Assembly (NCBI GenBank): GCA_944392235.1
Contig: CALXVZ010000006.1
Location: forward strand, 22,664 to 86,663
Reading direction: 5' to 3'
Length of the DNA: 64,000 bases
Origin: an uncultured Alphaproteobacteria bacterium
Lineage (GTDB): Bacteria; Pseudomonadota; Alphaproteobacteria; RF32; CAG-239
Part shown: positions 9,977-57,445 of the stretch, piece after piece
How positions within the stretch are numbered: position 1 is the first letter of the stretch
Layout: every line of letters starts with the position of its first letter
The notes under the pieces: model-generated
Database searches by the model: none
Told to the model about the DNA's origin: nothing
Seen by the model: the letters and a program-made list of their open reading frames with translations, nothing else
Position numbers and translations under genes: made by a program

Positions 9977-10006
9977 ATATAAGAAAACAGGGGTTTAAAA
10001 CAAACA

Positions 10007-10471: not shown

Positions 10472-10710
10472 TGAAAAAATATTCAGTTATAATAGCAAAC
10501 AGACACGCCACAAGTATTTCACTTGAAGAAGAATTCTATCAAGAGCTCTGTAATATAGCCGAAGAAGAAGGTATAACCATTAATCAGCTAATAACTCAGA
10601 TAGACTGTAAGAGAGAAACCCAAAATCTTTCCTCTGCACTAAGAATATATATACTAAAAAAACTTTCAGATAAATTAAAAAAATTCGAACAGAACAAACA
10701 ATCCAATTAA
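10471..10710 (+). CDS. Ribbon-helix-helix protein (RHH_4-like, common in Alphaproteobacteria)
   Basis: RHATSISLEEEFYQELCNIAEEEGITINQLITQID...NLSSALRIYIL matches the HRTS(I/V)SLE...NLSSAIR pattern. Its start overlaps the sspB stop (taATGa). Confidence 0.65.
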   Translation: MKKYSVIIANRHATSISLEEEFYQELCNIAEEEGITINQLITQIDCKRETQNLSSALRIYILKKLSDKLKKFEQNKQSN

Positions 10711-11561: not shown

Positions 11562-13091
11562 TTATTTAATTTTTTCAACAAAATTCCATTGATCAGTTAT
11601 AGGATTATAAACACAAAGACGTTTATCATAAATAGGTTTTAATATATAAATGGAAGAATACGGGGTCTGTTGATAATAAGTTTCAACAATATCTTGATTG
11701 ATATAGTGAACAATTTCAGGCCGACCACTTTCATCAGAAAATTTATTAAAATAACTTTTTCCATAAATAAATTTAGGCTTGAGCATTAAAATCAATTTAT
11801 TGATATCTGGTTTCGGAGCAATACCTGTTTGCTCTCCAATAACATCAAGTTGTCCGATAAGTTGCCAATAATAAGCAGGATCTTTTCCAAAAATATTATA
11901 CATCATACCATCTCCATTAAACACATAATCACAAGGAGAAATATTGCGAACAATATAATTAGGTAGATATTGTTTATTCAACTGCAAAGTAAGTATATCT
12001 TTATAGAATAAAGTCGCCCTATAAAGCATTAAATATAATATGGAAACAGCTCCCCAAACCACTATTTTATTTTTCTCAAAAATTTTACAAACAAATGGAA
12101 TTCCTACAATAGCAGCCAAATAAACCAACCACCAGAAATAATATGAATAAGGAGAAAAATAAAATTTTCTTTGAATAAATTCAGAAACAAATAAAATAGC
12201 ACAAACCATCCAATATTTATTTTTATAAAAACAAGACGCTATAGTTCCTACAAAACCGACCCACATCAACACTGCCATATATGTAGGAAATTCGACAATT
12301 TTATTCATCTCAAACCCTTTTACAAGATTGAGATTAAATGTAAAATTTGAAACTAAATATAAATTAAAAATATCATAATAGCAAAGATAGCAAACAAATC
12401 CCCCTATCAAAAATAACGGCAAAATAAGAGCCTTAAACATATCACTTGTTTTGATATTTTTTGAAAACCAGAAATAAATACCAGATAACCCTAAAACAAA
12501 AAGCGGAAAAACGGCTTTTTGAGCAAAAAGAAAAGCAATAGTAAACCAAAGAAACGCCACAATTAAAGAAAATGCTTTTTGCTTATTTAAGTATGAAAAA
12601 TAATAATAAATACCTGCCACCAAAGCAAAAACCATATAATTATCAGGTCTAAAATCAACCGCATATAACTTATAGCTAGGAATAGCAACAATAGCTGTTG
12701 CATAGAGAGCCCAAAATTTATCACATAAGAATTCAGCACAAATACGATAAACATAAACTAAGGACTTAAGAAAAACCAAAAACGAAATCAGACAAACAAC
12801 TTCCGAAATAATTGAGTTATAAGCAAATAATCCTACTAAAGGAGCAAATAAGAACCATAACAAAGGATTATGATGTTGAAAAAAATCTCTATAAGGAACA
12901 TTCCCTTGAAAAACTAAGAAACTAGAATGAATATGTTCAATATTATCACCATTTTGAGTAGGAATATGAGCAATCAAAAAAACATAAAAAACAGAAACAA
13001 GAATAAGATCTAGAGCAACAGCGGCAGTAGAAGCTCTCTTAGTTAAGAAGTCCCTTGTAACACACCAATAATGTTTCAATCTAATATTCAT
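11562..13091 (-). CDS. Polytopic membrane protein, putative GT-C-fold glycosyltransferase (ArnT/PMT/DUF2029-like), paralog 2
   Basis: About 11-13 hydrophobic helices plus a C-terminal soluble domain of about 130 aa. First-loop motif GNVPYRDFFQHHNPLLWFL and C-terminal DPAYYWQLIGQLDVIG are shared with the upstream paralog. Its start overlaps that gene by 11 nt. Confidence 0.5.
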   Translation of the reverse strand: MNIRLKHYWCVTRDFLTKRASTAAVALDLILVSVFYVFLIAHIPTQNGDNIEHIHSSFLVFQGNVPYRDFFQHHNPLLWFLFAPLVGLFAYNSIISEVVCLISFLVFLKSLVYVYRICAEFLCDKFWALYATAIVAIPSYKLYAVDFRPDNYMVFALVAGIYYYFSYLNKQKAFSLIVAFLWFTIAFLFAQKAVFPLFVLGLSGIYFWFSKNIKTSDMFKALILPLFLIGGFVCYLCYYDIFNLYLVSNFTFNLNLVKGFEMNKIVEFPTYMAVLMWVGFVGTIASCFYKNKYWMVCAILFVSEFIQRKFYFSPYSYYFWWLVYLAAIVGIPFVCKIFEKNKIVVWGAVSILYLMLYRATLFYKDILTLQLNKQYLPNYIVRNISPCDYVFNGDGMMYNIFGKDPAYYWQLIGQLDVIGEQTGIAPKPDINKLILMLKPKFIYGKSYFNKFSDESGRPEIVHYINQDIVETYYQQTPYSSIYILKPIYDKRLCVYNPITDQWNFVEKIK

Positions 13092-16787: not shown

Positions 16788-18863
16788 CTATTTTTTTATT
16801 TCAAAACACAAGACCGACCAAGCCGGCACCCAAATTTCCGCACCTGAAGCCAAACCATCAGCTTCAAATTTAGAAGAACTATCTAATAATAAATTCCATT
16901 TAAAAGATTTTTTAAAATTCGGTAACTTCCATTTCAAATGAGAACTCTGCGCATTAAGAATAACCATAAACAGTTTCTCGCGAGCTGTAACCACATAGGC
17001 CAAAGCCTTTCTGGTTGACTGATACCAATCAGCACTATTAAATTCCACACCTTTTTCTGTAAACCAAGCTAAATCTTTCAGTCCCAATTTAGGATCAATA
17101 ATTTGTCCTGTAAAAAAGTTTTTACGATTAAATATTCCCATCTTACGACGCAAGCGAATAAGATTTTTAACAAAACGCACATTAGCGATATCATCATTAC
17201 TTACAGCATCCCAAACCAAATAGGAAATAATATTATCATGACAATAAGCGTTATTATTACCAAACTGAGTATTTAAGAACTCATCACCTGAACGAATAAT
17301 TGGTGTTCCAAAAGAAAGAAGCAGAGTAGCAATCATCGCTTTGAGTCGAAGTTTTCTATTTTCCAAAACAGCTTTATTATCTGTATCCCCCTCTGCACCC
17401 GAATTATAGCTCCAATTAGCATCAGTTCCATCTCTATTATCTTCGCCATTTGCATAATTATGTTTATGATTATAACTAACCAAATCATATAACGTCATAC
17501 CATCATGAACAGTAAGATAATTAACAGAACTCCAAATAGTTCTCTTGCTTGGCCCAAAAATATCACTAGAGCCCGAAAGACGACTAGCTAATTCACCGAC
17601 TTGACGTTCATCACCTCTCCAAAAACGTCTAACAACATCTCTATACCGATCATTCCACTCCATACTTCCTGGAGGGAAAGCGCCAAGCTGATATCCACCG
17701 ATTCCAACATCCCAAGGTTCTGCCGCAATTTTGACCAATTGAAGCACCTCATCTTGCCGCAAGGACATTAAGAAACCGCTACTCTGATTAAATTCCTGTT
17801 TAACTCTAGCCAAAGAAGAAGCTAAATCAAGACGAAAACCATCGACATGCATTTCTTCAACCATATAACGCATAGAATCCATAACTAGTGTTAAGACATA
17901 CGGATTTTGCAGATTAAAAGAAGCCCCACAACCTGTGCTATCGTAATAATAGCGTTTATTAGTTCCATCAAGAGTATAATAGCTTTCGTTATCAATTCCT
18001 CTATAACAGAGAGTTGGTCCCATATGATTTCCTTCAAGAGTATGGTTATATACCATATCTAAAATTACTTCCAATCCACACTCATGAAATCTTTTAACCA
18101 TTTTCTTAAAGTTATTAATATCGGCACTAACCATATAACTTGGTTCAAGAGCAAAGAAGTTCAGAGTTTCATATCCCCAAAAATTATCTTTCATTCCGAC
18201 ATTACGTTCAGCCATAAATGCATTAACAGGCATAAGTTCAACTGAGGTAACGCCCAACCATTTCAAATAACCACAAACACTCCTACTTGCCAACCCAGAA
18301 AAAGTTCCTCGTTTTGCATCTTGCACTTTAGGATGTAACTTAGTGTATCCTTTAACATGGAGTTCATAAAAAACAGTTTTAGAAGCATCAATTTGAGGAG
18401 GAACATCTCCAGACCAATCAAAATCAGAACTATCAACAACCACAGACTTTGGCACATAAGGTGCACTATCTAGAGTTGAAAAAGATAAATCTTTATCTAA
18501 GCTATCAGGATCATAACCAAAAATAGCCTTATGCCAGATAAGGCGACCAATAATTTTCTTAGCATATGGATCTAATAATAATTTATTATGGTTAAATCTT
18601 TTACCTTTAGCAGGCTCATACGGACCATAAACACGATACCCATAAACCTGCCCAGGTGTAACACCTTCAAGATAAATATGCCAGATATTATTTTCCCGCA
18701 CAGGAAGTTCATAACGAGCTAATTCTTTCACTCCACTTTTATCAAACAAGCAAAGTTCCACTTTAGTAGCTCCCGCAGAGAACAGAGCAAAATTAACTCC
18801 CCACTCATCAGGTGTAGCCCCTAAAGGATAAGCACGACCTTCCCAAACTCTAATATCTGGCAT
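16788..18863 (-). CDS. glgX: Glycogen debranching enzyme GlgX (GH13)
   Basis: N-terminus RVWEGRAYPLGAT..GVNFALFS. GH13 regions DMVYNHT, GFRLDLAS, AEPWD and TVHDGMTLYDL. Confidence 0.85.
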   Translation of the reverse strand: MPDIRVWEGRAYPLGATPDEWGVNFALFSAGATKVELCLFDKSGVKELARYELPVRENNIWHIYLEGVTPGQVYGYRVYGPYEPAKGKRFNHNKLLLDPYAKKIIGRLIWHKAIFGYDPDSLDKDLSFSTLDSAPYVPKSVVVDSSDFDWSGDVPPQIDASKTVFYELHVKGYTKLHPKVQDAKRGTFSGLASRSVCGYLKWLGVTSVELMPVNAFMAERNVGMKDNFWGYETLNFFALEPSYMVSADINNFKKMVKRFHECGLEVILDMVYNHTLEGNHMGPTLCYRGIDNESYYTLDGTNKRYYYDSTGCGASFNLQNPYVLTLVMDSMRYMVEEMHVDGFRLDLASSLARVKQEFNQSSGFLMSLRQDEVLQLVKIAAEPWDVGIGGYQLGAFPPGSMEWNDRYRDVVRRFWRGDERQVGELASRLSGSSDIFGPSKRTIWSSVNYLTVHDGMTLYDLVSYNHKHNYANGEDNRDGTDANWSYNSGAEGDTDNKAVLENRKLRLKAMIATLLLSFGTPIIRSGDEFLNTQFGNNNAYCHDNIISYLVWDAVSNDDIANVRFVKNLIRLRRKMGIFNRKNFFTGQIIDPKLGLKDLAWFTEKGVEFNSADWYQSTRKALAYVVTAREKLFMVILNAQSSHLKWKLPNFKKSFKWNLLLDSSSKFEADGLASGAEIWVPAWSVLCFEIKK

Positions 18864-18884
18864 AATCCCTCACAACCTAATAAA

Positions 18885-21185
18885 TTAATAACGAATATGT
18901 TTCAACACAATTGTAGAAAGAGGCGGCAATGTAATTTCGATAGAATGAGGACGTCCATTCATAGACTCATCTGAAGCATACAATTCGCCCTCATTTTTAA
19001 CACCACTTCCCCAATAGTTTTTATCATCGCTATTAAAGATTTCTTGATATACACCACTATCCGGCACACCGATTTTAAAACCTCTTCTAACAACCGGAGT
19101 AAAGTTACAAACAACAACCATATAGTTATTTGAATCATGTCCTTTACGAATATAAGAAATAACACTATCATTAGCATTAGCGTGATCAATCCATTCAAAT
19201 CCTTTACTATCAAAATCTTCTTCAAAGAAAGCTGAATTACCTTTATACATCAAATTTAAATCACGCACACAATTTTGCACACCTTTATACATAGGATACT
19301 GCAACAAGTGCCACCTCAAACTTTCAGCAGAATTCCACTCCCAATCCTGTCCATATTCACACCCCATAAAGAGTAATTTTTTACCTGGATGCGTCCACAT
19401 AAAGCCATAATATGCTCTCAAATTAGCAAACTTCTGCCATTCATCACCCGGCATTTTACCAAGCATAGAACCTTTTCCATGAACAACTTCATCATGAGAA
19501 ATAGGCAAAACAAAATTCTCATTAAAAGCATACAACAAACCAAAAGTTAATTTACCATGTTCATATTTACGATAAACAGGATCTTTACTGATATAATTAA
19601 GGGTATCATTCATCCATCCCATATTCCATTTATAACCAAATCCCAATCCCCCCATAGAAGTAGGACGAGACACCATTGGCCAAGCAGTAGATTCTTCTGC
19701 ACAAGTCATTGTTCCAGGACATGTAGAATAACAGAGTTCATTCATTTTACGAATAAAAGCGATTGCCTCTAAATTTTCATTTCCGCCATAAATATTTGGT
19801 ATCCATTCACCATCTTTACGAGAATAGTCAAGATAGAGCATAGAAGCAACAGCATCAACACGAAGTCCATCAATATGATATTCTTTCAACCAATAAAGAG
19901 CGCTAGAGCAAAGAACATTACTTACTTCTGTTCTACCATAGTTATAGATTTTAGTTCCCCAATCTTTATGTTCACCTTTACGAGGGTCAGCATGTTCATA
20001 CAAATGTGTCCCATCAAATTCGACCAAACCATGTCCATCTTTAGGGAAATGAGCTGGCACCCAATCCATAATAACACCGATATTAGCCTGATGGAATTTA
20101 TCAATCATATATCTAAAGTCATCAGGATTACCAAAACGAGAGGTTGGAGCAAAAAGACCTGTAACCTGATATCCCCAGGAAGCATCTAAAGGATGTTCGC
20201 AAACAGGTAAAAATTCGACATGAGTAAATCCCATATTCATAACATAAGGCACAAGGCTATCAGCTAATTCTCTATAAGTTAAAAATTCTGAACCATTTTC
20301 ACCTTTTCTACGCCAAGATCCCAAATGAACTTCGTAAATAGACATTGGTCTATCAAAACTATTATATGAAGCACGATAACTCATCCAATCATTATCATTC
20401 CATTTATAGTGATTAAGATCATAAACAATAGAAGCGGTATTAGGTCTAACCTCTGAATAGAAAGCCATAGGATCGCTTTTTGTTAAAATATAACCTTGCT
20501 GAGTTTTAACTTCAAATTTATAGTATTCACCTTCAGAAATATTTGGAATAAATATATCCCAAACTCCACAATTAAAATGTTTACGCATAACATTAACGCG
20601 TCCGTCCCAATTATTAAAAGCGCCAATAACAGAAACGCGTTTAGCATTTGGAGCCCAAACAGAAAAACCTACACCTTTAACCCCATTAAGTTCCATTACA
20701 TGAGCACCAAGTTTTTTATATAGATCTAAGTGATTACCTTCAGCAAAAAGGTATTCATCTATATCACCCAAGATTGAAGGAAAAGAATAGGCATCCTCCT
20801 CAATATAAACTTCATTTTTATCGTTAGTAATTTTAAACTTATGAGAAAAGTTATCAGTATTCATCATTCCCAAATTAATTTGATAAAACCCTCTACTATC
20901 AAGCATAGTCATCAAACCCAAAGAATTATTTTGAGCATCCAATAACTCTATTGATTTTGTTTTAGGTTTATAAGCACGAATAAAGACTTCTTTACTTCCC
21001 TTATCACGATGAACACCCAACACAGCCATTACATTTTCATAATCGCCGTTAATAATGCATTCCATTTCATTTTTCGACAGTAAATTATTCATATTCCCCT
21101 CACCACAAGAACTCAAGACAGCAAAGTCACAAAGTCCATTGTTATTTTCATTTTTTACAGTTTGATTTTTAACTGTGTTGGCCAT
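18885..21185 (-). CDS. glgB: 1,4-alpha-glucan branching enzyme GlgB (GH13)
   Basis: GH13 regions [27 protein letters not shown] and [10 protein letters not shown]. Confidence 0.9.
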
Positions 21186-21788
21186 AACTATAACTCCAAA
21201 ATATAAATAAAAAATACGTTACAAAACATGTATAAAAACAAAACAAATAAATTGCAAGAATTTTGTTATTTTTTTTCACCATTCCACAACCATTTTTCCT
21301 TTTAAAAACAACATGATTACCCACATCAAAACATAGTTCTATTTTTTAAAACAACATCGCAACAAAAAACAAAAAAATAACATAAACAAGACATCCAAAT
21401 ACTATGCAAAAATATCTTTAAACTCACTACATTAAAGACACGAATAAAAAGATAATATTTTTGCACAAGAAAAGAATTTTTTTTTCATAAAAATTTTATT
21501 TAAACAAAAACAGTATTTTTCGAACTTCCATACAGAAAAATTTGCACTAAAGTTTTACAAAAAAAAGCATAAAAAACAAATAGATATCAAACAAAAGATT
21601 ATCAAAAACAAATAACTTATTGTCATTATTATTTTTTTTAATATTTCTCTCTTTTTTTAATGATTTTTTAATCTATTTACATATATAAGATATCTACCAA
21701 CAAAAACGAAAAAAATTCGTATTTACAAAATAAAAATTATATTTATACTAACACTGTTTTTACAACGAAATTATTTGGAGATATTGAA

Positions 21789-34952: not shown

Positions 34953-36377
34953 ATGTCAAAAGCAAAAATAATAGCTGGAGCGGGTATCGTTATTGCCGGA
35001 GCCACTTTCTCAAAATTACCACAAAACACGAACATTCAAAAAGAAAGTGCTAATTCTACAGAAAAAGAAATAGCTGCCTACTCATCATCTACCCCTATAG
35101 TCGAAGAAAAATCTCTAAACTCAAAACGAGATGCTGAAAAAATTTATCATCGCTTTGAAGATATTCCTGCCATTAGCGACAAAGATGCTATAAAATATAA
35201 TAAAAATGAATACATCTACATCATCAATGCCGATAAATATCAAGAAACAGGAGATATTGAACTTAAACGTGTATTAAAAAATGAAGTAACCAAAGCTAAC
35301 ACACTAAGCCTTATTTATCGTAGTGAATGCCAAACATACGAACCCCAAAAAAACGAAGATCAGTTAGCAAAATACATCATAAATTTGCGCATCATGAGTA
35401 AAACTGGTATAACAAAAGGCCCATCTCAGATGGATGATAACGCCATAAAATCTTTCATAAAATATTTAGCAGCCAATCCAGAAACAAGAAAATACGTTTT
35501 ACCACTTCTGAAAACAACAAAAGGAACACCGGAAGAGGCTGCAAAAGAATTAGAGAAAAAATTTTTCGATAAAAATGGTAACTTACGTCCAATGGATGAA
35601 CGTGATGCAATTTTACATGGACATACATATAAAAACATAACAATAAAAGAGGATGCATGGCAACATTTAGCTTCAACTAAACTAAAAAAATTTATAACCC
35701 AAGAAGAACATAAAATGTCCCAAAAAGCTGGACGAGAAATTATTTTAAGCAATACAACAAAAAATTACTTATATCTTACAGAAACATTTCCATCTGAAGA
35801 GTTACTAAAACGCCAAATAGAAGACTTCAATTTAGCATTTTACCAACTAGGTCGATCAGGAAAAACAAAACATGTGACAGCTGCACTAGCACGCAGTATG
35901 AACTTAAAAGATGAACAAGGTAATTTAGATGCAACACGTATTCCGCCCTTTGCAATAGCAGCAGCAATAAGCAGTATAAATTGGCAAGGTAACGGTAACA
36001 AAGCATTAAAAGACGCTCAAAATTTAAGAAGCAAATCTTTAGGACTAACAACAGAAAAACAGAATCAAATGTTACGAGAATTAGTAAAAAATTGGGTAAC
36101 AGGAAAAAGCAAACGCTACGGTGTTGATGAAATGTATGAATTAAATATTCTAACTCCCGATATTATTCGTCAATATAGAGAATTAGAGTTATCCGGTTCT
36201 AAAGCTCTTATTGCAAACTACAATAAAGCTATAGCGCATGCCGAACAAAGAATTCAAATTGCTCAAAACACAAACAACGAGAATAATAAGAATGAAAGTA
36301 ATACAAAACAATTAAAAAAAGAAAAAACTTTCATTTTAACAGCAATAGACTTTATCCGCAGTAAAGTCAGAGGATAA
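34953..36377 (+). CDS. Hypothetical exported protein (orphan)
   Basis: 474-aa ORF with an N-terminal hydrophobic segment AKIIAGAGIVIAGATF. GAGGAAAA RBS upstream. Followed by its own terminator. Confidence 0.5.
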   Translation: MSKAKIIAGAGIVIAGATFSKLPQNTNIQKESANSTEKEIAAYSSSTPIVEEKSLNSKRDAEKIYHRFEDIPAISDKDAIKYNKNEYIYIINADKYQETGDIELKRVLKNEVTKANTLSLIYRSECQTYEPQKNEDQLAKYIINLRIMSKTGITKGPSQMDDNAIKSFIKYLAANPETRKYVLPLLKTTKGTPEEAAKELEKKFFDKNGNLRPMDERDAILHGHTYKNITIKEDAWQHLASTKLKKFITQEEHKMSQKAGREIILSNTTKNYLYLTETFPSEELLKRQIEDFNLAFYQLGRSGKTKHVTAALARSMNLKDEQGNLDATRIPPFAIAAAISSINWQGNGNKALKDAQNLRSKSLGLTTEKQNQMLRELVKNWVTGKSKRYGVDEMYELNILTPDIIRQYRELELSGSKALIANYNKAIAHAEQRIQIAQNTNNENNKNESNTKQLKKEKTFILTAIDFIRSKVRG

Positions 36378-42365: not shown

Positions 42366-42815
42366 ATGTCATATAGCGATATAAAAAAGAATAGCATATT
42401 TAATAGTGCAACTCCTGAAGAAAAGGAAGTGTTTCTATCAACTTTATGCACGCTAGCTCAAATAGACAGCAAGATAAAGCCGGAAGAAATGTCTTTCATT
42501 GAAACAATAGCAAACGAAATGAAGGTTCCACTAAAATCACATTTTTTCAGATACTCTCAAGAAGTTTGCATCAAAAAAGCAGAACAAATAAACAATCGCA
42601 GATTAGGCCTTGAATTGATAAAGGATTTACTGGCCATTGCATATACAGATGACAACTTTTCCGATTCTGAAGGACATTTTATCTGTAAGATTGGAGATGC
42701 GCTTAAAATAGAAGCCCAAAAGATAGGCGAAATAAGTTCTTGGTTAATTGATCACATTATCTGGCTCGAACAAGAGCAGTTAATATTTGAAACAGCCGAT
42801 ATCAAAGGAGAATAA
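42366..42815 (+). CDS. TerB-like (tellurite-resistance TerB fold) protein
   Basis: Two half-repeats of the TerB pattern (LCTLAQIDSKIKPEEMSFIETIANEM and LLAIAYTDDNFSDSEGHFICKIGDAL). Confidence 0.5.
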   Translation: MSYSDIKKNSIFNSATPEEKEVFLSTLCTLAQIDSKIKPEEMSFIETIANEMKVPLKSHFFRYSQEVCIKKAEQINNRRLGLELIKDLLAIAYTDDNFSDSEGHFICKIGDALKIEAQKIGEISSWLIDHIIWLEQEQLIFETADIKGE

Positions 42816-45296: not shown

Positions 45297-45917
45297 ATGC
45301 GTTACGCTGGAAATATCTTTTTATACAATAATAACAATATAAATAAAACCATCTACCATGAGAACCTAGAAAAATTAGGATACTATCTCTTTGACACAGA
45401 CAATTTATACAAATTTACGCTATATAACAAAGAAATAACCCCCAATATTATACTATTTGACTTTGCTCCAAACACATCTGCAAACTTCATCACATCACTA
45501 GAAGAAAGATTTGAACGCTCAGACACCCCCATAATTATCGTGAGTGAAGAACCTAAATCCTTAATTTACCACCCCTCAGTCAGTCATTACATAACCCATA
45601 ATGAAGCACAAAAAGGACTCAATGAAATCATAGAAACATACTGCATTGGAAATAAAAATCACCAAATACTCTATATAAATTTAAAACCACATGAAAAATC
45701 AGATTTTTCCAAATCTATACAAAACAGCAAATATAGCACTTTTGAAGTTCATACAATTAATGCCGCACAAACATACTTGCAAAAAAACACCCCTACAATT
45801 ATTTGCATAAACTTCTTACCTGCATTAAGTAAATCTAAAAAAATTTTCTCATTTTCCAACACTTTTTATGTGGAAAACACGCAAAATATTAAGGAATTTG
45901 AACAATTTTTACATTAA
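45297..45917 (+). CDS. Hypothetical protein (possibly a degenerate receiver-like fold)
   Basis: Alternating beta/alpha-like pattern NIFLYNNN...PNIILFDFAP...TPIIIVSEE. It lacks the N-terminal acidic pair of true receiver domains. Weak call. Confidence 0.4.
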   Translation: MRYAGNIFLYNNNNINKTIYHENLEKLGYYLFDTDNLYKFTLYNKEITPNIILFDFAPNTSANFITSLEERFERSDTPIIIVSEEPKSLIYHPSVSHYITHNEAQKGLNEIIETYCIGNKNHQILYINLKPHEKSDFSKSIQNSKYSTFEVHTINAAQTYLQKNTPTIICINFLPALSKSKKIFSFSNTFYVENTQNIKEFEQFLH

Positions 45918-46684: not shown

Positions 46685-46708
46685 AAAAAAGCAGAGAAAA
46701 ATCTCTGC
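46685..46708 (-). terminator. Intrinsic terminator for the NMO-like gene
   Basis: Minus-strand stem gcagaga/tctctgc with a 4-nt loop, followed by a run of six U. Confidence 0.7.
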
Positions 46709-46726
46709 TTCACTAAATCAAATAAA

Positions 46727-48226: not shown

Positions 48227-49699
48227 TTAGAATGCTTTAAATAACTTAGCCCAATCAATATCATTTCCCACAACAAGTGCAACGATGACACAACAATAAG
48301 TATATGTAATTAAAGTATTAATCATCATAACACCAATACGTTTGGATAATGATCTATGCCACTTTTTAATTCCCCAATGGAGCAAATTAAAAAACAAGAT
48401 ATACACAATAAGCTGTAAAGATATCCCCAGCTTTTGCAAATCTTCTTTATAACCGACTACAAATCTCGGCCAAAATGTTAATAAAAGACTATAGAGCATT
48501 ACGCAAAAATAAGTAACTCTCATAGTTTTCTGCTCATAAATTTGAGATTGTAATTTATTTTTCTCCAAGCTTTCACGAGATAAATTTTTCAATTCAAATC
48601 CACGAATTTTGCGAGGTTGCGTTTTCTGTTCCTGAATTGTTTTCAAATTAACTTTAAGTCGCTCTTCCGCAACACATAAACCACACCCTTTATTTGTAAA
48701 ATAAGCATGATTAGGATTCTTTTTACAATGTTTTAGATTTTTAAGCAAATAATCCAATTCCATTTGCCACTCAATTGCGGACGGTCTTTTTTGTCCTTTA
48801 ACAAAAGCTCTATCAAAAAGCTTTAAAGTACTTTGCGGTAAGAATTCATGAATACTATATGGATGAGGAGCCTGATAAGTATCCCCCCACATACCATAAG
48901 CATAATGATATTGTTCAATACGTTCTTGAATAGAAAGAGCACTATCAGCATTTTTCTTAACAACACCAGAAAAAGGATGAATACCATTATTCAGCAATTT
49001 AAAGATAATAACAGCTAATGCAAATTTATCTTGTTCCTCTCCCATCTCCTCACAAGATTGTTCCATACCTTCCGGATAAATATACTCTTCGCTAACAAAT
49101 TCAGCCGGAAAACGAGCCTGTTCACCCTGAATAGAAAACCCATCACAATCAAACATTGCAACAGTCATCGTCTTTTTATAGATTGAAACATTAGAAGGTT
49201 TAAGGTCAATAATATAATGCCCATATCTATGTAAAGAAGCCACCATAAGAGCGACATTATAAGCAGCCATAACACGATATTCATATTTATCGCTCAACCC
49301 CAACTTAGAACGAACAGCACCTTGCATCAAGTGATCAAGAGAAACCGCTGCAGACGTATCAATAAAAGGCATCATATAGCCGACACAATATCCTTCATCA
49401 TCTTCAAGCACTGCTTCAGGCCATGCTATTTGCACATACTCAACACCACCTGCAGTAACACTAGGAATATTAGGATTATTGACCACCATCGCCTCTAATT
49501 TCAAGCGATTAGTATTACTTTTCTGTCTTTCATGAAATATTTTTGCAACTTTATCAGGTTGTCCAACAATTTCATAAATTTTACCAGCCGCACCACCTTT
49601 ATTTAAGAGTTTACCTAAAGTAACTCGAGTAAAATGTCTATCTGCAAAAATAGCATTATATTGTAACAAAGGCGACAAAGACAAAGTTTCAGAAGTCAT
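48227..49699 (-). CDS. Membrane-anchored atypical Ser/Thr protein kinase (YegI/TerY-P kinase type)
   Basis: Gly loop NKGGAAGKIYEI, beta-3 Lys VAKIF, catalytic loop YIIDLKPSN (no HRD His/Arg), DCDG in place of DFG, and FALAVIIFKLL..HPF. Cys cluster HCKK...GCGLC. About three C-terminal TM helices. ATGA start/stop overlap with the PP2C gene. Confidence 0.75.
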   Translation of the reverse strand: MTSETLSLSPLLQYNAIFADRHFTRVTLGKLLNKGGAAGKIYEIVGQPDKVAKIFHERQKSNTNRLKLEAMVVNNPNIPSVTAGGVEYVQIAWPEAVLEDDEGYCVGYMMPFIDTSAAVSLDHLMQGAVRSKLGLSDKYEYRVMAAYNVALMVASLHRYGHYIIDLKPSNVSIYKKTMTVAMFDCDGFSIQGEQARFPAEFVSEEYIYPEGMEQSCEEMGEEQDKFALAVIIFKLLNNGIHPFSGVVKKNADSALSIQERIEQYHYAYGMWGDTYQAPHPYSIHEFLPQSTLKLFDRAFVKGQKRPSAIEWQMELDYLLKNLKHCKKNPNHAYFTNKGCGLCVAEERLKVNLKTIQEQKTQPRKIRGFELKNLSRESLEKNKLQSQIYEQKTMRVTYFCVMLYSLLLTFWPRFVVGYKEDLQKLGISLQLIVYILFFNLLHWGIKKWHRSLSKRIGVMMINTLITYTYCCVIVALVVGNDIDWAKLFKAF

Positions 49700-50502
49700 A
49701 GTTCAACCCACAAAAAAGTTTTATCATCAGAATTTAATTTTCTAGCTTGTTTCGTATTCAAAGTATTATTCAAAGCTTTCAACGCTCTCGTTTTATTTTG
49801 TTCATTTTTAAGATAGCGATTAATAGGTTCAATAAATCCGTGTTTAAGCTGGCACATATTATCAGAAAGAGCAAAATTAGTAACACCATCTGTCATAAGA
49901 AATAAGGTATCTGCTTTTTCGATTGGTGTAAAACGCAAACATTTTTCCCAATTATTCATCGTATAGAAATAAGTTTCACACGAAAAATTACCATTAGCAG
50001 GTCTAGAAAGAGTATAATTAATTTTTCCATCTATTGCATGATCTGAATTTACCAAAGGCGTATTTTTAGAAGGATGGAGAGCAATACCTGCCCCATCACC
50101 AATATGAAAAAAAACACCTTTATTTTTATGATAAGCCACCCCCACAATAGTGGCTGAAAAATTCAAAATTTCTCTATCGGACTTAGACTTATTCAATCGA
50201 TGAATAACCAAGCGAGAACGAGCCATATTAATAGCCTTAAAAACAGCTTCTCTAGTATTTTTAAGAGGTGTATTAATTAAGACGTTTACAAGAGTTTCGC
50301 AAACAATTTTAGCCCCTATTTTTCCATAAAGAGCCGACCCTGCCCCATCAGAAACAACAGCAACTAACTTATTACCGGAACAAGCATATTGATAAAAATC
50401 CTGACAAGGTTTTTGCTTAGCTAAATGCAGCCCCCCAGTAATTTTTGTAGCAATAACACGTATAGGACTAGGCGTTTTCTTCATTCCAAGCCTCAATATC
50501 AT
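49696..50502 (-). CDS. PP2C-like Ser/Thr phosphatase (PphC/TerY-P type)
   Basis: KPCQDFYQY, VVSDGAGSA, FHIGDGAG and LFLMTDGV. The 5' end overlaps the vWA gene. Confidence 0.7.
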   Translation of the reverse strand: MILRLGMKKTPSPIRVIATKITGGLHLAKQKPCQDFYQYACSGNKLVAVVSDGAGSALYGKIGAKIVCETLVNVLINTPLKNTREAVFKAINMARSRLVIHRLNKSKSDREILNFSATIVGVAYHKNKGVFFHIGDGAGIALHPSKNTPLVNSDHAIDGKINYTLSRPANGNFSCETYFYTMNNWEKCLRFTPIEKADTLFLMTDGVTNFALSDNMCQLKHGFIEPINRYLKNEQNKTRALKALNNTLNTKQARKLNSDDKTFLWVEL

Positions 50503-51160
50503 CTAAAATATCAGGCATATTCGGAGCCGCCCTGGAAACGCAAGACACACTACGAGAAAGCCACAAGAAAAACTCAGTAAATTTGAGCCCGCTTAAACGT
50601 TTAGGTGTCAAAAGAGAAAACTTGGCCAATTTATCAAGATTAGCCCCTTGAGTTCCAACTGCATGGATAACCACTTTTTTATTTTGCTGAGCTTCACGAC
50701 ATTTTGCAGCCGCCAACTCCCAACCATAATCAGTTGGTTCACCATCACTAATTAAAAAAATCCAAGGTCTTTTAGAGGTAATACCGCAACTATCGTATAA
50801 GCATTTTTGCTCTTCAATTTTATGTAAAGCAAGTTCCATCGCTTTGCCAATTGGAGACAAACCTGAAGCTTCCATAACTGGAGCAGTAAAATTCATTGCA
50901 TCAACCCAATCGGCTGAAATTTCCGCATTATCTTTACCATAAGCTTTAATAACCAACAATTGCACACGAGAACTCGCATCAATATCCTCTTTTAATTCTT
51001 TTTCCAACGCTTGCAAACCGGAATTAAGCTGTTTAATAGGTTCTCCTCTCATAGAGCCTGAGCAATCAAGAACCAAGATACAAGGAGTTCTCTCATTAGC
51101 ATTTTCAGCAAATTCCACATACGGAATCATAACATCGGAAAAATCATTTTTATTTTCCAT
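50468..51160 (-). CDS. von Willebrand factor A domain protein (TerY/YegL-like)
   Basis: MIDAS motif LVLDCSGSM and downstream FLISDGEPTD. Cytoplasmic (no signal peptide). Confidence 0.75.
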   Translation of the reverse strand: MENKNDFSDVMIPYVEFAENANERTPCILVLDCSGSMRGEPIKQLNSGLQALEKELKEDIDASSRVQLLVIKAYGKDNAEISADWVDAMNFTAPVMEASGLSPIGKAMELALHKIEEQKCLYDSCGITSKRPWIFLISDGEPTDYGWELAAAKCREAQQNKKVVIHAVGTQGANLDKLAKFSLLTPKRLSGLKFTEFFLWLSRSVSCVSRAAPNMPDILDDIEAWNEENA

Positions 51161-51426: not shown

Positions 51427-51975
51427 ATGAAAAAGATAATAAGTCTGATAGTATTCTTTTTACTCACCAGTTTAAGTGCACAAGCATACAGTGGCCCCAA
51501 AGGGCTATATATTTTAGAGTATCCGGTGAATATGCCTGATATCTCATTAGTATCAGAAAACAACGAACAATTTTCTATATTAAGCAGTAAAGCTCAATTA
51601 ACCATTTTAATTTTTTGGTCACAAAGTTGTTTTCCCTGCTTAAGAGAGATGAAAAGGCTAGAAAAATTTTATCCCAAAGCTCTAAAAGATGATATAAAAG
51701 TAGTGTTAGTTTCTCCTGCATCTGAGTGGAGCAATAACACTGAAGAAAGGCAATTTTTAACAAAATATGGAGCCCCGACAATTCCTTTTTACAATGATAA
51801 AGAAAATAAATTATCATTAAGTTTAGGCATAGGTTCCACACCATATACTGTTATAATGGATAAGCAAGGCAAAAAAATAGCTACTATTCAAGGAGAAGCC
51901 GATTGGAGTTCAAACCAACTATATAAACAAATAAAGGCACTAAAAAAATCAGATGAAGGAACAATAATAAAATAG
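51427..51975 (+). CDS. TlpA-like periplasmic thiol:disulfide oxidoreductase
   Basis: Signal peptide. Thioredoxin motif WSQSCFPCLREM. GIGSTPYTVIMD (cis-Pro loop). Confidence 0.7.
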   Translation: MKKIISLIVFFLLTSLSAQAYSGPKGLYILEYPVNMPDISLVSENNEQFSILSSKAQLTILIFWSQSCFPCLREMKRLEKFYPKALKDDIKVVLVSPASEWSNNTEERQFLTKYGAPTIPFYNDKENKLSLSLGIGSTPYTVIMDKQGKKIATIQGEADWSSNQLYKQIKALKKSDEGTIIK

Positions 51976-52045: not shown

Positions 52046-53503
52046 TTAGTGAATTTCACAATCTTTTTGATTTTTACCTTCCGCAGCATATTTTTCCAAA
52101 ACGACCGCTGCTTTTTTAGGCATAGAAAGACATCCTGGACCTGCAATACAGCCACCTTCACAACACATAACTTCCAACATATTGCATCCATTATCCAAAC
52201 CTTTTGCAGCATAACGTTTTAAGTTTTTAACTTCATCTTTAGTAAGCCCATCAATTTTCATTGGACGATAATCAGCACGACCATCGATTAAATTTTCAAC
52301 TGCAGCAGCAACACCGCCAGAAATAGCATAGCGACGAGATTGAGCAGAAGCTTCATCAGAAAAAGCAGACGCATCCAAAGCATTAATATCAATACCTTTA
52401 GCATCAAACATAGCTTGAATATCAGCAAATACTAACACATAATCGACATTAGGATTACTTTCAGCTTCAATTCGCTTAGCCAAACAAGGCCCAACAAATA
52501 CGGAAACAGCATCTGGATAACGTTTCTTTAAGACCTCTGCTGCATAAAACATTGGACTACCAGTATTAGAAACATATTTTTCAATATCTGGAACATGAAC
52601 TTTAGCAGTTTTAACATAAGCCGGACAGCAAGAAGTCGTCATAAAAGGAGCACCTTCATGCATACGCTCCACAAATTCTGCAGATTCGTTTTTAGAAGTG
52701 AAATCTGCTCCATAAGCAACTTCAATAACATCATCAAATCCTAAAGCTTTATAAGCTGCAATAACCTTACCTAAATCATTACCAAACTGTCCTAAAATAG
52801 AAGGAGCAACCATCGCTACAACTTTTTTATCAGGATTTTTCAGCACGTTTAAGACGTCAATCATCTGTGAATTATAAGTAATAGCACCAAAAGGACAAGA
52901 TTGGAGACATTTCCCGCAAGAAATACATTTTTCAATATCAATTTCTTCACGCCCGTCAGCATCTTTTGAAATTGCATTTACCGGACAAGCATCCTCACAA
53001 GGCACCACAGATTTATGAATAGCCCCATAAGGACAATACATAGCACACAAACCACATTTGATACATTTACTCTGGTCAATAAAGGCTTTATCTGTAACAG
53101 TAATTGCTTTCTTAGCACAATTAAGTTCACAAGGACGTGCCACACAAGCCTGACACATGGGAGTAACCTCAAAAGTTTTAGATCTGCAAGCATTACAAGC
53201 CCCTTTAGTCACAGATAAACCGGCACGAGTAGGCAACGTTCGTTCCAAAGCTTCTTTTGCCAATTCATTCAAATTTCGATTCTCATCAACATTCTGAACT
53301 AAAAAACCCATTGCAGCCAAGATTTGCCCTTTAATTGCAGCCTTCGCCATATCTTGATTATGGTAAACTGTTTTTTCCGCAGATAATTCATCTAAAACAT
53401 TCTCAATATCATCTAAATTTGTTTCAACAAAGGACTTAGCAACTCTTTGCATCACCTCTGCACGAATATACGCCACATTATTTTTTGCAGTCAGCATAAG
53501 CAA
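52046..53503 (-). CDS. [FeFe]-hydrogenase-like catalytic subunit with two ferredoxin-type clusters
   Basis: CIKCGLCAMYCP and CISCGKCLQSCP (two [4Fe-4S] motifs). H-cluster motifs TTSCCPAY (L1), GPCLAKRIE (L2) and MCCEGGCIAGPG (L3). Confidence 0.75.
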   Translation of the reverse strand: MLMLTAKNNVAYIRAEVMQRVAKSFVETNLDDIENVLDELSAEKTVYHNQDMAKAAIKGQILAAMGFLVQNVDENRNLNELAKEALERTLPTRAGLSVTKGACNACRSKTFEVTPMCQACVARPCELNCAKKAITVTDKAFIDQSKCIKCGLCAMYCPYGAIHKSVVPCEDACPVNAISKDADGREEIDIEKCISCGKCLQSCPFGAITYNSQMIDVLNVLKNPDKKVVAMVAPSILGQFGNDLGKVIAAYKALGFDDVIEVAYGADFTSKNESAEFVERMHEGAPFMTTSCCPAYVKTAKVHVPDIEKYVSNTGSPMFYAAEVLKKRYPDAVSVFVGPCLAKRIEAESNPNVDYVLVFADIQAMFDAKGIDINALDASAFSDEASAQSRRYAISGGVAAAVENLIDGRADYRPMKIDGLTKDEVKNLKRYAAKGLDNGCNMLEVMCCEGGCIAGPGCLSMPKKAAVVLEKYAAEGKNQKDCEIH

Positions 53504-54415: not shown

Positions 54416-57400
54416 TTAAAAGTTACTTTGCACACCTAATATTCCGATATAATCAGTAACACCTTTTTCACCATCGGCATTAAAACGAGCCTGCACTTTT
54501 CCCATAAGGCTAAGATCTTCTTTAGGCTGCCCTTGATAGTAAAGACCTAAATCATATTCTTTAGCCTCTGGTGTTAAAGAGGTGTTGAGTTTATTCATAT
54601 AAATCGTATCAGAATTATTATCGCGACCACTAGCATAAAGTAAAGACGCCCGTCCTTTAACTACAGAAAGAGGTGAAGAAAGACTCAAGCCTATTTTATC
54701 TTTTGCATTTAATCTATATTCACCAGCCAACATAAAGCTTTCTGTTTGTAAATCAGATATAGCCAACATTGGTGTATCAGCACCTTGTGTATAACCACGA
54801 TAATAAGCCGCAATCAAAGAGAGATTAGGAGTTAAATTCAAAGCAGCTCTAATCCCCATATAATAAGTAGAACTATCTTTAATACCAAAACCGCCTGTTC
54901 CATTCATACCCAAAAGAGCATCATTTTCCATAAGCATTCCACCCATGGTTGCCAACTCAAGATAATCTGTCATATTAAAAGAATACTCACCGGAAAAAGC
55001 ATATGAACGTTCTGTAAAGGAATGGTTATCCTGTTCATAATCACGCTCAAACAAGCCATTTTCACCAGTTTGCAAAGCCAATTTAAATTTAGAAGTATCA
55101 CTAAGTTTCATCGTATTTTCGGCCCCATAAGCCTCATTCATAGCCAAATAAGGATTAGTTGAAGGGGTTAAGACATTTTCCGGAGTATCAAATTTACTAT
55201 TTTGAGCATAATAAAAACGAGTAGCTCCTTTATCAGTTTCGTTGACAACTTCCATTGAAGCCAAATTAGCTTTACCACCATTATCTAACGTTTCGCTAGA
55301 AGAAAAAGAGAAACCAGTTTTTTCATCTTTAATGACCTTTTTATTACTTCCCGCGGCCATTCTGGATACGGCATTACGGAAATTAGCATTAGAAGCGTGT
55401 GTTTCATTAACTAAATTTTCTGTATTATATTGAAAAGGTCTATTAAGAGCATCAAAAGCAGTAACAGATTTAGGTAAAACCTTTAAGATTTTATTCTGCA
55501 TCGCAGAAGAAAGGGATAACTTAGAGAGCCCTGCAGAAGACAGAGAATTAAAGGAAGCAGACGTTGGCAAACCCAACCCACCTATTGGAGTAGTAACAGC
55601 CGCTTCCAAATCCAACGCTCCTTGTCCATACTTTTGCGAATTTGCATATTCTCCCTTATCATTAGCCGTTTCAAGCAAGATATATGCAATATTCTGAGCT
55701 GATAACCAAGGATAATATCCCATTAACAAAGCTACACTACCAGAAACAACGGGAGTAGCCATAGATGTTCCGCTTTCAGCAAGCGTTCCTTCGTCAACAG
55801 CACCGGTTGATTCAACAGTGCTCCCCGGAGCGGCCAAACAATAACCGGCAGCACTTCCACACCAGTTAGAATAATTCGCCATATATCCTGAAGGAGCATT
55901 AGCATCTTTAGTACTATAATCCAATGCAGCAACAGCTAAGAAAGGCACTTCATATTTACCAGGCCCCGCATAACCATAATGAGACAAATCCACAGTAGGC
56001 AATCCCGTTTGTATAGCTGAATTATGAAGACCTTCATTTCCGGTTGCCTGCACCCAAACAGCTCCCCCTTTCGCAGCATAAGCATAAGCTTTCGCATCAT
56101 CAGAATATTGAATAAGCGAGGCATTATCTGCATTAATAATGCTATTAGCCGGTGTCCCCCAGCTATTATTGAAAACTTTAACACCATTATCCGTCAAAGT
56201 TTTGACTATTTCGGAAATATTATTTTCCAAATCCCAACTAACAGCAACAATTTGAGCATTTTCAAAAGCGACACCATGCATACCTGAATCATTTTTATTT
56301 CCGGCTACAATACCAGCCACATGCGTTCCATGATTAATATTGCTAATGACACCTAAAACAGTATCAAGATCATAGATATCAAACTTATTAATCAAGGAAG
56401 TTCCCGGATCCGCCGCATTACCAGAATTTACCAAAGAAAACTCATCTTTAGTAAGACCATAATCAGCTAAAACTTTATTTAACTCCGTCTCAGACAGTTC
56501 ATAGCTACCATTTTCACTGCGTCCTACATTCATATAAACCTGAGTTGCATCTTTTTCATTCGGTTTAGCCTGCACAAAATAGTAAGATCCATTTTTGAAA
56601 AAGATATAAGATTGAAAACCATTAGCCGCCTTAAAACTTGTCCAAATATTAGCTTGATGATTATAATCATTAACATCATATGCGCCAACAATTTTTTCAG
56701 CTAAATCTGCATTAGAATAAACTCCGGTATCAACCACAGCTACTTTAACCTTTTTGAGTTGTTCATCTGAATTAGCCTGATGACTGATGAGATTACCTTT
56801 ATCATCTTTAGAATACATATAGCTATACGCCTCAGCAGCATTTATCGCATCTAAGAAGTTCCCTTTAGAATATTCTTGAGTTTTAAAAACATCTGCAGAA
56901 ATTGTCGGTTTTTTATCACTATCAACTGGAGGCCCGGAGATTTCACCTTCAAAATGGCTACTATCGCTTCCACCGCCACCACCACTTGAAAGAGCCGCAA
57001 CACCACCACCAACAGCAAGAGCCCCAAGCCCCCACCATAAATAATTATTTCCACTATCATCTGTCTTATAATAAGAGGATGAAGATGGTCTTATTGCATT
57101 TTTACGAGTTCGACTTTGAGCATACTGTTCTTTTTGTTCATTAACCTTTTGCACACAAGAATGATGAGTATTTGCCCCATAATTTTCCAATAAATTCTGG
57201 GCTTGAGTATCATTATAACGCAAAGCCAAACAATATGCGGTATTACCGGAATAATTCTGTAAATCTATCGCTCCCTGATAGCGAGACAATCTATGCAAAA
57301 ACGTAGTATTACCATGATTAGCTTGCCGGTAAATTTCATTTGCTGTAAGACTGTATGCAAACGAGGGGGCAAGAGGAAGACCAATACCAAATACAGATAA

Positions 57401-57445
57401 TAAAAACCAAAGACCAACTTTATTTTGCCCCATCATAACCAACAC
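54416..57445 (-). CDS. Autotransporter serine protease: signal peptide, ankyrin-like N-terminus, S8 subtilase passenger, C-terminal beta-barrel
   Basis: Catalytic triad contexts VAVVDTGV, HGTHVAGIVAG and SGTSMATPVVSG. ANK-like GNTAYCLALRYNDTQAQNLLENYGAN. Gly-rich linker. C-terminal amphipathic beta-strands ending in GVQSNF. Confidence 0.8.
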   Translation of the reverse strand: MLVMMGQNKVGLWFLLSVFGIGLPLAPSFAYSLTANEIYRQANHGNTTFLHRLSRYQGAIDLQNYSGNTAYCLALRYNDTQAQNLLENYGANTHHSCVQKVNEQKEQYAQSRTRKNAIRPSSSSYYKTDDSGNNYLWWGLGALAVGGGVAALSSGGGGGSDSSHFEGEISGPPVDSDKKPTISADVFKTQEYSKGNFLDAINAAEAYSYMYSKDDKGNLISHQANSDEQLKKVKVAVVDTGVYSNADLAEKIVGAYDVNDYNHQANIWTSFKAANGFQSYIFFKNGSYYFVQAKPNEKDATQVYMNVGRSENGSYELSETELNKVLADYGLTKDEFSLVNSGNAADPGTSLINKFDIYDLDTVLGVISNINHGTHVAGIVAGNKNDSGMHGVAFENAQIVAVSWDLENNISEIVKTLTDNGVKVFNNSWGTPANSIINADNASLIQYSDDAKAYAYAAKGGAVWVQATGNEGLHNSAIQTGLPTVDLSHYGYAGPGKYEVPFLAVAALDYSTKDANAPSGYMANYSNWCGSAAGYCLAAPGSTVESTGAVDEGTLAESGTSMATPVVSGSVALLMGYYPWLSAQNIAYILLETANDKGEYANSQKYGQGALDLEAAVTTPIGGLGLPTSASFNSLSSAGLSKLSLSSAMQNKILKVLPKSVTAFDALNRPFQYNTENLVNETHASNANFRNAVSRMAAGSNKKVIKDEKTGFSFSSSETLDNGGKANLASMEVVNETDKGATRFYYAQNSKFDTPENVLTPSTNPYLAMNEAYGAENTMKLSDTSKFKLALQTGENGLFERDYEQDNHSFTERSYAFSGEYSFNMTDYLELATMGGMLMENDALLGMNGTGGFGIKDSSTYYMGIRAALNLTPNLSLIAAYYRGYTQGADTPMLAISDLQTESFMLAGEYRLNAKDKIGLSLSSPLSVVKGRASLLYASGRDNNSDTIYMNKLNTSLTPEAKEYDLGLYYQGQPKEDLSLMGKVQARFNADGEKGVTDYIGILGVQSNF

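Follow-up and report, generated by a model that had tools for sequence, protein, structure and literature searches.

In a contig of an uncultured alphaproteobacterium (GenBank assembly GCA_944392235.1, contig CALXVZ010000006.1), we have analysed a stretch of 64,000 nucleotides, which is referred to as the window and whose coordinates are used throughout, with a focus on three consecutive genes that code for a vWA protein of 230 residues, a PP2C phosphatase of 268 residues and a Ser/Thr kinase of 490 residues. An earlier note on this DNA had described these genes as a tightly packed triad on the minus strand, and the open reading frames (ORFs) were found exactly at the positions given there; likewise, every motif quoted for the three proteins is present in the translations. 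The start codon of the kinase gene and the stop codon of the PP2C gene share the sequence ATGA, and the 3' end of the vWA gene overlaps with the PP2C reading frame by 35 nucleotides if counted from the first ATG of the latter, or by 17 nucleotides if translation starts at the conserved Met 7 (position 50484), which is probably the true start since this site is conserved in alignments of orthologs. Both overlaps had already been noted. The features of the triad and of the genes surrounding it are listed in Table 1.

Table 1. Features of the vWA-PP2C-kinase triad and its flanking genes in window coordinates.
Feature	Position	Strand	Basis and remarks
Intrinsic-terminator-like hairpin with T-run	46688..46711	-	16 nucleotides past the stop codon of the NMO-like gene; strong
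NMO-family FabX-like flavin mononucleotide (FMN) oxidoreductase with a putative [4Fe-4S] cluster, 463 residues	46727..48118	-	Pfam NMO, 33.4 bits; 108 nucleotides downstream of the kinase gene
YegI-family Ser/Thr kinase	48227..49699	-	Catalytic domain, zinc ribbon, helical linker and three transmembrane (TM) helices; no further C-terminal domain
Kinase: membrane anchor, three TM helices, residues ~393-481	48257..48523	-	Family-averaged hydropathy and modelled helices
Kinase: zinc-ribbon-like C325-x5-H331-x7-C339-x2-C342	48674..48727	-	Directly after the kinase domain
Kinase: catalytic domain, residues ~20-320	48740..49642	-	Two alignments and fold search
PP2C_2-family Ser/Thr phosphatase, PphC/YegK homolog	49696..50502	-	Pfam PP2C_2, 115 bits (cutoff 24)
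YegL/TerY-type cytoplasmic vWA protein	50468..51160	-	Pfam VWA, YegL homology, AlphaFold model
lipo44, unannotated lipoprotein gene, 44 residues	51197..51331	-	36 nucleotides upstream of the vWA gene; signal peptide and lipobox Cys
TlpA/ResA-like periplasmic thiol:disulfide oxidoreductase	51427..51975	+	Pfam AhpC-TSA/Redoxin/Thioredoxin_8; NCBIfam TlpA/ResA

The vWA protein carries an intact metal-ion-dependent adhesion site (MIDAS), defined by D32-x-S34-x-S36 in the sequence LVLDCSGSM, the loop G100-L-S-P103-x-G105 and D139. It scores 25.1 bits against the Pfam VWA model (cutoff 23.8) and is 42% identical to YegL of E. coli K-12 in a BLASTP comparison (E 1e-49); its orthologs carry the label 'uncharacterized protein YegL' at JGI. 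Searching the PDB by sequence returned no match for this protein, and structural relatives were found only by comparison of folds, where its AlphaFold model, with a mean pLDDT (predicted local distance difference test) score of 77, retrieved the vWA domains of the anthrax receptor, collagen VI and integrins and the archaeal protein ArnB. Towards the C-terminus we find the signature F194..F198-x-W200-L-S202-x-S204-x4-S209. An alignment of vWA proteins from four phyla has the MIDAS residues and the pattern F-x3-F-x-W-[LV]-S-x-S-x4-S in common, with all three serines being invariant, which makes these serines candidate phospho-acceptor or docking residues. The phosphatase, which contains the motifs VVSDGAGS and LMTDGV, displays 24% identity to PphC of E. 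coli K-12 (BLASTP, E 6e-10). The aspartate of the first motif is invariant in 80 PP2C orthologs and aligns with D46 of PphC, an active Mn2+-dependent PP2C phosphatase in which this residue is essential (bioRxiv 10.1101/303594).

In the kinase, we find the motifs GGAAGK, VAKIF, IIDLKPSN and FDCDGF, and both HRD and DFG are absent. The protein scores 32.3 bits against the Pfam Pkinase model (cutoff 31.7) and shares 28% identity with YegI of E. coli K-12 over 335 residues that include the cysteine cluster (BLASTP, E 2e-28). Its AlphaFold model has a mean pLDDT of 73.7, with values of 84-94 in the ribbon and with the TM segments modelled as helices, and it matches protein kinases in a fold search, including M. 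tuberculosis PknB and BRAF, with a TM-score of up to 0.72 at identities of at most 18%. The Pfam matches of all three proteins lie above the respective cutoffs, as the domain assignments of the earlier note had implied, and the fold searches back the two marginal ones. An exhaustive family search with phmmer, in which the matched module comprises kinase and ribbon (query residues ~25-350), yielded 694 representative clusters with E-values of up to 1e-30 and 5,308 with values of up to 1e-10, with total protein lengths ranging from 355 to 1,145 residues. Among 25 diverse members of this family, K53 (of VAKIF), D165 (of IIDLKPSN), D184 and D186 (of DCDG) and C325, H331, C339 and C342 of the ribbon are invariant, and the alignment of the same proteins defines IDLKPxN and LDCDGFSI as family consensus; catalytic residues and ribbon are invariant also within the clade of the window kinase. 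The motifs of the window kinase agree with the consensus of this very large family, of which it is thus a typical representative, whereas YegI of E. coli is the divergent one. Its description as atypical thus holds with respect to canonical kinases, in view of the lack of HRD and the replacement of DFG by DCDG, but not within its own family.

The kinases of this family differ in what follows the ribbon. Additions found at the C-terminus encompass Ank, SH3_3, PG_binding_1, Sel1, TPR and HhH domains, and in all six kinases inspected from E. coli and from plasmids the ribbon at residues ~305-325 is followed by TM-like segments and a long tail. No Pfam domain was found beyond the ribbon in the window kinase, which constitutes a minimal form that ends about 10 residues past its third TM helix. 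The TM segments, located at about residues 395-416, 421-444 and 457-481 in hydropathy profiles averaged over 81 orthologs and modelled as helices by AlphaFold, bear out the roughly three C-terminal TM helices that had been proposed, and the cysteine cluster that had been mentioned alongside them corresponds to C325-H331-C339-C342. A loop rich in Lys and Arg between the second and the third helix predicts a topology with the N-terminus inside and the C-terminus outside, in which stretches of ~7 and ~10 residues would be exposed to the periplasm. Sequence conservation amounts to 0.50 in the TM tail compared to 0.84 in the C-lobe. This weak conservation and the lack of a sensor domain in the kinase suggest that the tail serves as an anchor.

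A genome scan anchored on the kinase identified 529 stretches of DNA encoding a relative, and our counts rest on the best 80 of these 529, which represent one species-level genome each and all originate from uncultured Alphaproteobacteria of gut or rumen (e.g. CAG:495, Ca. Scatocola and UMGS1453). Synteny was determined by tblastn searches of the 80 loci with the window proteins. Five genes, encoding the TlpA-like redoxin, lipo44, the vWA protein, the PP2C phosphatase and the kinase, reside at fixed offsets wherever sequence exists, and the three genes of the triad stay together as a block in all 80 species, as would be expected if the earlier note had been right in treating them as a unit. 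The tight junctions between triad genes are kept across loci, with an overlap of 4 nucleotides in 33 and of 1 nucleotide in 15 cases. The maintenance of this block in at least 80 species puts the observation far beyond chance. The outer flanks vary by species and contain Fe-hydrogenase, FolD/VTT, ribosomal protein L31 or type IV pilus genes. As a scan anchored on the kinase cannot detect the absence of the triad, we have also scanned metagenomes with the neighbouring NMO-like gene as anchor, where no case of absence was found among contigs of the gut clade with enough upstream sequence.

Rates of evolution were compared by the median identity to the window proteins in close and far species. 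For the vWA protein, these values are 94% and 82%, compared to 92% and 85% for PhoH, 85% and 76% for MiaB, 80% and 57% for the kinase, 75% and 50% for PP2C and 63% and 51% for FolD; EF-P, which is not contained in the far loci, shows a value of 94% in close species. The vWA protein hence evolves as slowly as EF-P. Across the 80 species, its identity to the window protein ranges from 79% to 97%, and conservation reaches at least 90% in 73% of its alignment columns, compared to 33% in PP2C. The sequences of all three proteins point to strong purifying selection in these species, and the EF-P-like constraint, which extends over the whole vWA protein, suggests that the latter binds a conserved cellular component. 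The distribution of the triad, which is universal, syntenic and slowly evolving, does not support the flavour of conflict or defence that had been ascribed to it in the earlier note.

Two observations on mobile DNA concern individual loci. The sole match in a phage collection, MT836238.1 (L125), is a contig from a human faecal virome designated 'UNVERIFIED: Bacteriophage sp.', which carries the bacterial TlpA-lipo44-vWA-PP2C-kinase-NMO block. Because an unverified contig holds the same bacterial block, we have dropped it as evidence for mobility and phage carriage; in all likelihood, it represents a piece of bacterial DNA from this clade and not a phage. In the locus L007 of one relative, positions 18086-21485, about 7 kb downstream of the triad, contain an integrase, a helix-turn-helix protein and a helicase/restriction-type gene, in place of which the otherwise identical locus L006 carries a porin and ribosomal protein S1. 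The insertion is strain-specific and lies near the conserved block but outside it.

The conserved block exceeds the three genes of the triad. It includes lipo44, the divergently transcribed TlpA-like redoxin and, in most species, a FabX-like flavoenzyme downstream of the kinase. As in bacterial lipoproteins, the product of lipo44 has a signal peptide and behind it a lipobox whose cysteine is invariant. In 77 aligned orthologs, the signal peptide and its h-region are variable, whereas the lipobox [LVI][SA][AG]C and the motif of the mature peptide are conserved. This mature peptide of about 21 residues, which is without cysteine, displays the near-invariant motif P-x-EGSGYPHxYPR, in its fuller form CG[KR]xSxPxPxEGSGYPHxYPR, and a divergent copy that retains the lipobox cysteine is found in the locus L047. 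No Pfam family covers lipo44, and its relatives in databases are confined to 6 unnamed entries; an equivalent lipoprotein gene was not found upstream of the triad in five plasmid loci that are described below. The peptide may be the best candidate for an extracytoplasmic input to the kinase. The TlpA-like redoxin contains a signal peptide, as judged from an N-terminal hydrophobic segment, and an SCFPC motif. Wherever a locus has sequence at this place, the redoxin was detected at the same offset, with identities of 28-78%.

Downstream of the triad, the NMO-like gene lies on the same strand, and the terminator scan placed no site between it and the kinase gene. Its closest relatives in the PDB are structures of H. 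pylori FabX (7e1q and 9lt5, E 4e-17, over residues 15-311), an FMN/[4Fe-4S] decanoyl-ACP (acyl carrier protein) dehydrogenase/isomerase (PMC8626469). The overall similarity is distant (65 bits). In the FMN TIM barrel, the sequence GGHNG aligns with GGHQG of FabX and thus retains the catalytic His182 (PMC8626469), and four cysteines that are invariant in the clade follow an insert of about 75 residues with a spacing of C-x2-C-x3-C-x21-C, compared to Cys300/304/308/320 in the C-terminal [4Fe-4S] subdomain of FabX. The protein may represent a FabX-like subfamily of its own among anaerobic gut Alphaproteobacteria. About 73 of 77 species have the gene next to the triad, with its offset unchanged. 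L047, L067 and L084 lack it there, and in L072 a gene on the opposite strand lies in between, whereas L112 contains a homolog of 52% identity with no triad nearby. In view of this lone homolog and the three triad loci that lack the gene, an obligate or general linkage can be rejected, and we describe the association as clade-specific and frequent but not obligate. The statement of the earlier note that the triad is not linked to any effector stands for nucleases and pores, but it had overlooked lipo44, the redoxin and the flavoenzyme as three co-conserved neighbours.

The surroundings of the triad were correctly described as housekeeping-type, with annotated genes of the window encoding PBP2/RodA, SspB, glycogen enzymes, RpoA, Adk, SecY, Lnt, PhoH/YbeY/MiaB, FolD and EF-P. 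Among the annotatable ORFs of the window, several others being without annotation, there are no mobile or defence genes. An Rfam scan of the window detected a transfer-messenger RNA (tmRNA) and one tRNA, and no riboswitch or leader at the triad operon; in a promoter scan, fewer sites were found than in shuffled sequence and we therefore do not claim any promoter. The tmRNA is of the permuted two-piece alphaproteobacterial type (9625-9979, plus strand, tag ANDNFAPVAVAA) and directly followed by a homolog of SspB, an adaptor for the degradation of tagged proteins (10007-10471, plus strand); together with a TrcR gene, it is consistent with the alphaproteobacterial placement of the window. On the minus strand at 52046-53503 is a gene for an [FeFe]-hydrogenase-type protein with Fe_hyd_lg_C and several 4Fe-4S domains, which fits an anaerobic gut lifestyle and adjoins the conserved block only in closer relatives. 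At 54416-57445 (minus strand) is a gene for a 1,009-residue subtilase (Peptidase_S8), which carries a signal sequence and whose long C-terminal part resembles an autotransporter beta-domain; this protein diverges fast among relatives (26-87% identity). A 206-residue ORF (45297-45917, plus strand) with sub-threshold receiver/VpsR-type similarity, possibly a degenerate response-regulator-like protein, stays linked to FolD/VTT genes and not to the triad. Several large ORFs have no Pfam match at E<=1e-5, three on the minus strand (6926-9520, 864 residues; 11562-13091, 509 residues; 10707-11480, 257 residues) and one on the plus strand (34953-36377, 474 residues).

The identity of the triad was evaluated by comparison to known systems. 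The assignment to the TerY-P or YegL-PphC-YegI type, which had been made in the earlier note, holds since all three proteins are homologous to their E. coli counterparts in BLASTP comparisons and the kinase also to those of plasmid triads, in which the genes have the same order. The defining attributes of such triads are found in the window, with co-directional vWA, PP2C and kinase genes in this order, a vWA protein with MIDAS, a phosphatase with the catalytic aspartate and a YegI-family kinase with ribbon. The E. coli locus shares the gene order and, in B strains, the ATGA junction between pphC and yegI. As in the window proteins, YegL contains the MIDAS and the C-terminal WLSxS...S signature, and YegI is without HRD and DFG and exhibits a D-x-D motif, a C-H-C-C ribbon and a membrane anchor. 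YegI was described as a membrane-bound kinase with DSD in place of DFG and a preference for Mn2+, which autophosphorylates serines of its activation segment in a Mn2+-dependent manner with second-order kinetics (bioRxiv 10.1101/819920) and which is dephosphorylated by PphC (bioRxiv 10.1101/819920, 10.1101/303594). With 648 residues, two TM passes that were shown experimentally and a cytoplasmic C-terminal helix-hairpin-helix region, it differs in its architecture from the window kinase, and in the catalytic loop VGDxxQxS and DSD take the place of IDLKPxN and DCDG. In contrast to the window, a lipoprotein gene upstream and TlpA-like or NMO-like neighbours are missing from the E. coli locus, which varies between strains by insertion of yegJ and was found to be weakly expressed in published work.

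The TerY-P triad was defined by Anantharaman, Iyer and Aravind in 2012 as a TerY-like vWA protein, a PP2C phosphatase and a kinase-zinc ribbon fusion, according to a later account (PMC11090510), which also describes such triads as embedded in CoCoNuT restriction systems. The order vWA-PP2C-kinase and the tight junctions recur in five plasmid loci from four phyla, in Azospirillum, Granulicella, Pseudomonas (pQBR103), Sinorhizobium and Deinococcus, all of which reside in accessory contexts. The Deinococcus triad, whose kinase is 30% identical to the window kinase (E 3e-28), adjoins genes for StiP, a phosphoribosyltransferase and an HpcH aldolase, the Ter-associated gene set reported by Anantharaman et al. 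(2012). The window triad differs from these systems in being core-genomic rather than accessory and in its location outside of a ter operon or restriction system. Among its window neighbours, which are otherwise housekeeping genes, the only link to ter genes is a stand-alone ORF with a TerB domain (42366-42815, plus strand; PF05099, 38.4 bits) that is followed by a 305-residue ORF without recognisable family. We have not counted it as a part of the system because of its distance of 5.4 kb, its location on the opposite strand and its lack of co-conservation with the triad in distant species. PADLOC returned no TerY-type match for the window triad, and since the E. coli proteins YegL, PphC and YegI and three plasmid triads equally go unrecognised, we consider this result as uninformative rather than negative.

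Two other systems provide points of reference for the mechanism. In Sulfolobus, the kinase ArnC and the phosphatase PP2A determine the oligomeric state of the vWA protein ArnB (PMC7472852). The window vWA model matches ArnB (PDB 8s05) with a root mean square deviation of 3.2 Å, and in both cases a cytoplasmic vWA protein would constitute the phospho-regulated element. The archaeal system differs by its FHA partner ArnA, the unrelated kinases ArnC and ArnD, a PPP-type phosphatase and an additional C-terminal domain in ArnB, and we regard the resemblance as a mechanistic analogy and not as family membership. The Deinococcus radiodurans operon DRA0331-DRA0334 combines a vWA protein, a kinase with three C-terminal TM helices and a PP2C phosphatase (bioRxiv 10.64898/2026.01.23.701218); it is distinguished from the window by its gene order (vWA - STPK - FHA - PP2C), an extra FHA protein and a phosphatase in the form of a KI-FHA-PP2C fusion.

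In light of a triad that is universal, syntenic and slowly evolving amid housekeeping genes, we favour its interpretation as a chromosomal, vertically inherited phospho-switch of the YegL-PphC-YegI (TerY-P) type, a core signalling unit and not a mobile defence island, and consider this interpretation to be reasonably probable. Our analysis documents the gene structure with its tightly coupled junctions, the homology, the folds of kinase and vWA protein, the synteny, the rates of evolution and which catalytic and metal-binding residues are conserved; enzymatic activities, a role of the vWA protein as substrate, a role of lipo44 and the output are inferred and could be combined in the following way. 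The kinase would be held at the inner membrane by its three TM helices, with catalytic domain and ribbon facing the cytoplasm. It would autophosphorylate in the activation segment, as described for YegI, and would be reset by the translationally coupled phosphatase, as described for PphC acting on YegI. The cytoplasmic vWA protein would serve as regulated adaptor or substrate, by analogy to ArnB and in line with a hypothesis summarised in PMC11090510, and through the metal site and the invariant C-terminal serines of this protein, the state of phosphorylation would be coupled to the binding of a conserved cellular partner. In this clade, lipo44 would supply the extracytoplasmic input to a kinase that is devoid of a sensor.

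Several points weigh against this interpretation. The triad proteins of the clade are known from sequences and models, the Pkinase and VWA scores barely exceed their Pfam cutoffs, and the regions of low confidence in the kinase model (residues 196-211 and 239-279) span the activation segment. The poor sequence conservation of the TM tail fits an anchor better than a sensor, and the relevance of lipo44 and of the TlpA-like gene is judged from their conserved adjacency. We also know of no demonstration that YegL is a substrate of YegI. Finally, members of the same family are found elsewhere in accessory or mobile contexts, as in the plasmid loci, and a related TerY-P cassette of vWA, PP2C and kinase was reported by Gao et al. 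in 2020 to protect against T7-like phages, as stated in a secondary source (PMC7699616).

Because of these mobile contexts and of the reported protection against phages, a defence role has to be weighed, although we hold it to be unlikely. In this case, the triad would be an anti-phage TerY-P-type system that has become fixed in the clade, where infection would trigger the kinase and vWA-mediated phosphorylation would block the phage or cause abortive infection. Its three-gene architecture is the same as in the cassette of Gao et al., TerY-P triads are present in CoCoNuT restriction systems (PMC11090510), the plasmid homologs adjoin a GIY-YIG nuclease, DNA methyltransferases, an Hxs system and insertion sequence elements, and PADLOC assigns weak matches of the window to PD-T4-6-type kinase models. 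However, the patchy and mobile distribution of a defence island was not observed, as the triad occupies one syntenic site in 80 species without any presence/absence polymorphism found, including in the NMO-anchored scan, and its vWA protein changes as slowly as EF-P. Near the triad, the annotatable ORFs include neither a nuclease or pore nor a mobile element or other defence gene, and the sole match to a 'phage' is the unverified virome contig with the same bacterial block. In addition, the kinase of the Gao version is reported to carry an OB fold fused to its C-terminus (PMC11090510), whereas the window kinase contains a helical linker and three TM helices instead.

A second alternative, which appears quite improbable, views the whole block as an envelope or membrane-lipid circuit, in which the kinase and lipo44 would sense the state of membrane or periplasm and adjust the FabX-like enzyme of unsaturated fatty acid metabolism, comparable to DesK and the Des desaturase. 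It would account for the location of the flavoenzyme gene 108 nucleotides downstream on the same strand, with no terminator before and a strong one after it, for its position beside the triad in about 73 of 77 species even though the flanks are rearranged, and for the co-conservation of a lipoprotein and a periplasmic redoxin with the triad. It is also consistent with FabX as closest solved relative, with a conserved catalytic histidine and a conserved cluster of four cysteines (PMC8626469), and with the architecture of the kinase, whose TM helices are not accompanied by an extracytoplasmic domain. Conversely, three species keep the triad without the flavoenzyme gene, an opposite-strand gene intervenes in one more and the 52%-identical homolog stands alone, while triads in other places are without linked lipid genes. 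The flavoenzyme is a distant relative of FabX, with a different cysteine spacing and the insert of about 75 residues, the TM tail is weakly conserved, and mature lipo44 offers no cysteine for redox sensing. We regard as very improbable that the triad is an inactive relic, with a pseudokinase and degenerate partners kept by synteny alone, as might be suspected from the absence of canonical HRD and DFG motifs and the marginal Pfam scores of kinase and vWA protein, since the family's catalytic residues are all invariant, the reading frames are intact in all cases, the three proteins are under strong purifying selection in 80 species and the still more degenerate YegI of E. coli is an active kinase (bioRxiv 10.1101/819920).

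The architecture of the triad, with vWA protein, phosphatase and kinase, was already known, and concrete handles on the module are given by its fixation in a core genome, the constraint of the vWA protein at the level of EF-P and the discovery of lipo44. As the organisms are uncultured and the architecture has been described, the practical value of the finding is limited. In the gut clade, the triad looks indispensable, as it is present in all sampled species at one site with a vWA protein constrained like EF-P, in contrast to E. coli, where it is barely expressed and located in a strain-variable neighbourhood. Its fixation and the constraint on its vWA protein argue that such a module is able to fulfil a core function in the cell and is not only an accessory of phage defence or stress response. 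The clade also offers candidate partners, with lipo44, the three invariant serines of the vWA protein and the FabX-like neighbour. A more far-reaching and rather doubtful proposal would be that the triad is part of a clade-specific unit of six genes devoted to envelope or lipid homeostasis, where lipo44 would act as extracytoplasmic co-sensor for a receptor kinase without sensor domain, similar to MgrB for PhoQ, and the vWA protein on the FabX-like enzyme or on another essential process of the envelope. If true, such a unit would show that TerY-P-type triads are general-purpose vWA phospho-switches, which have here been recruited for housekeeping.

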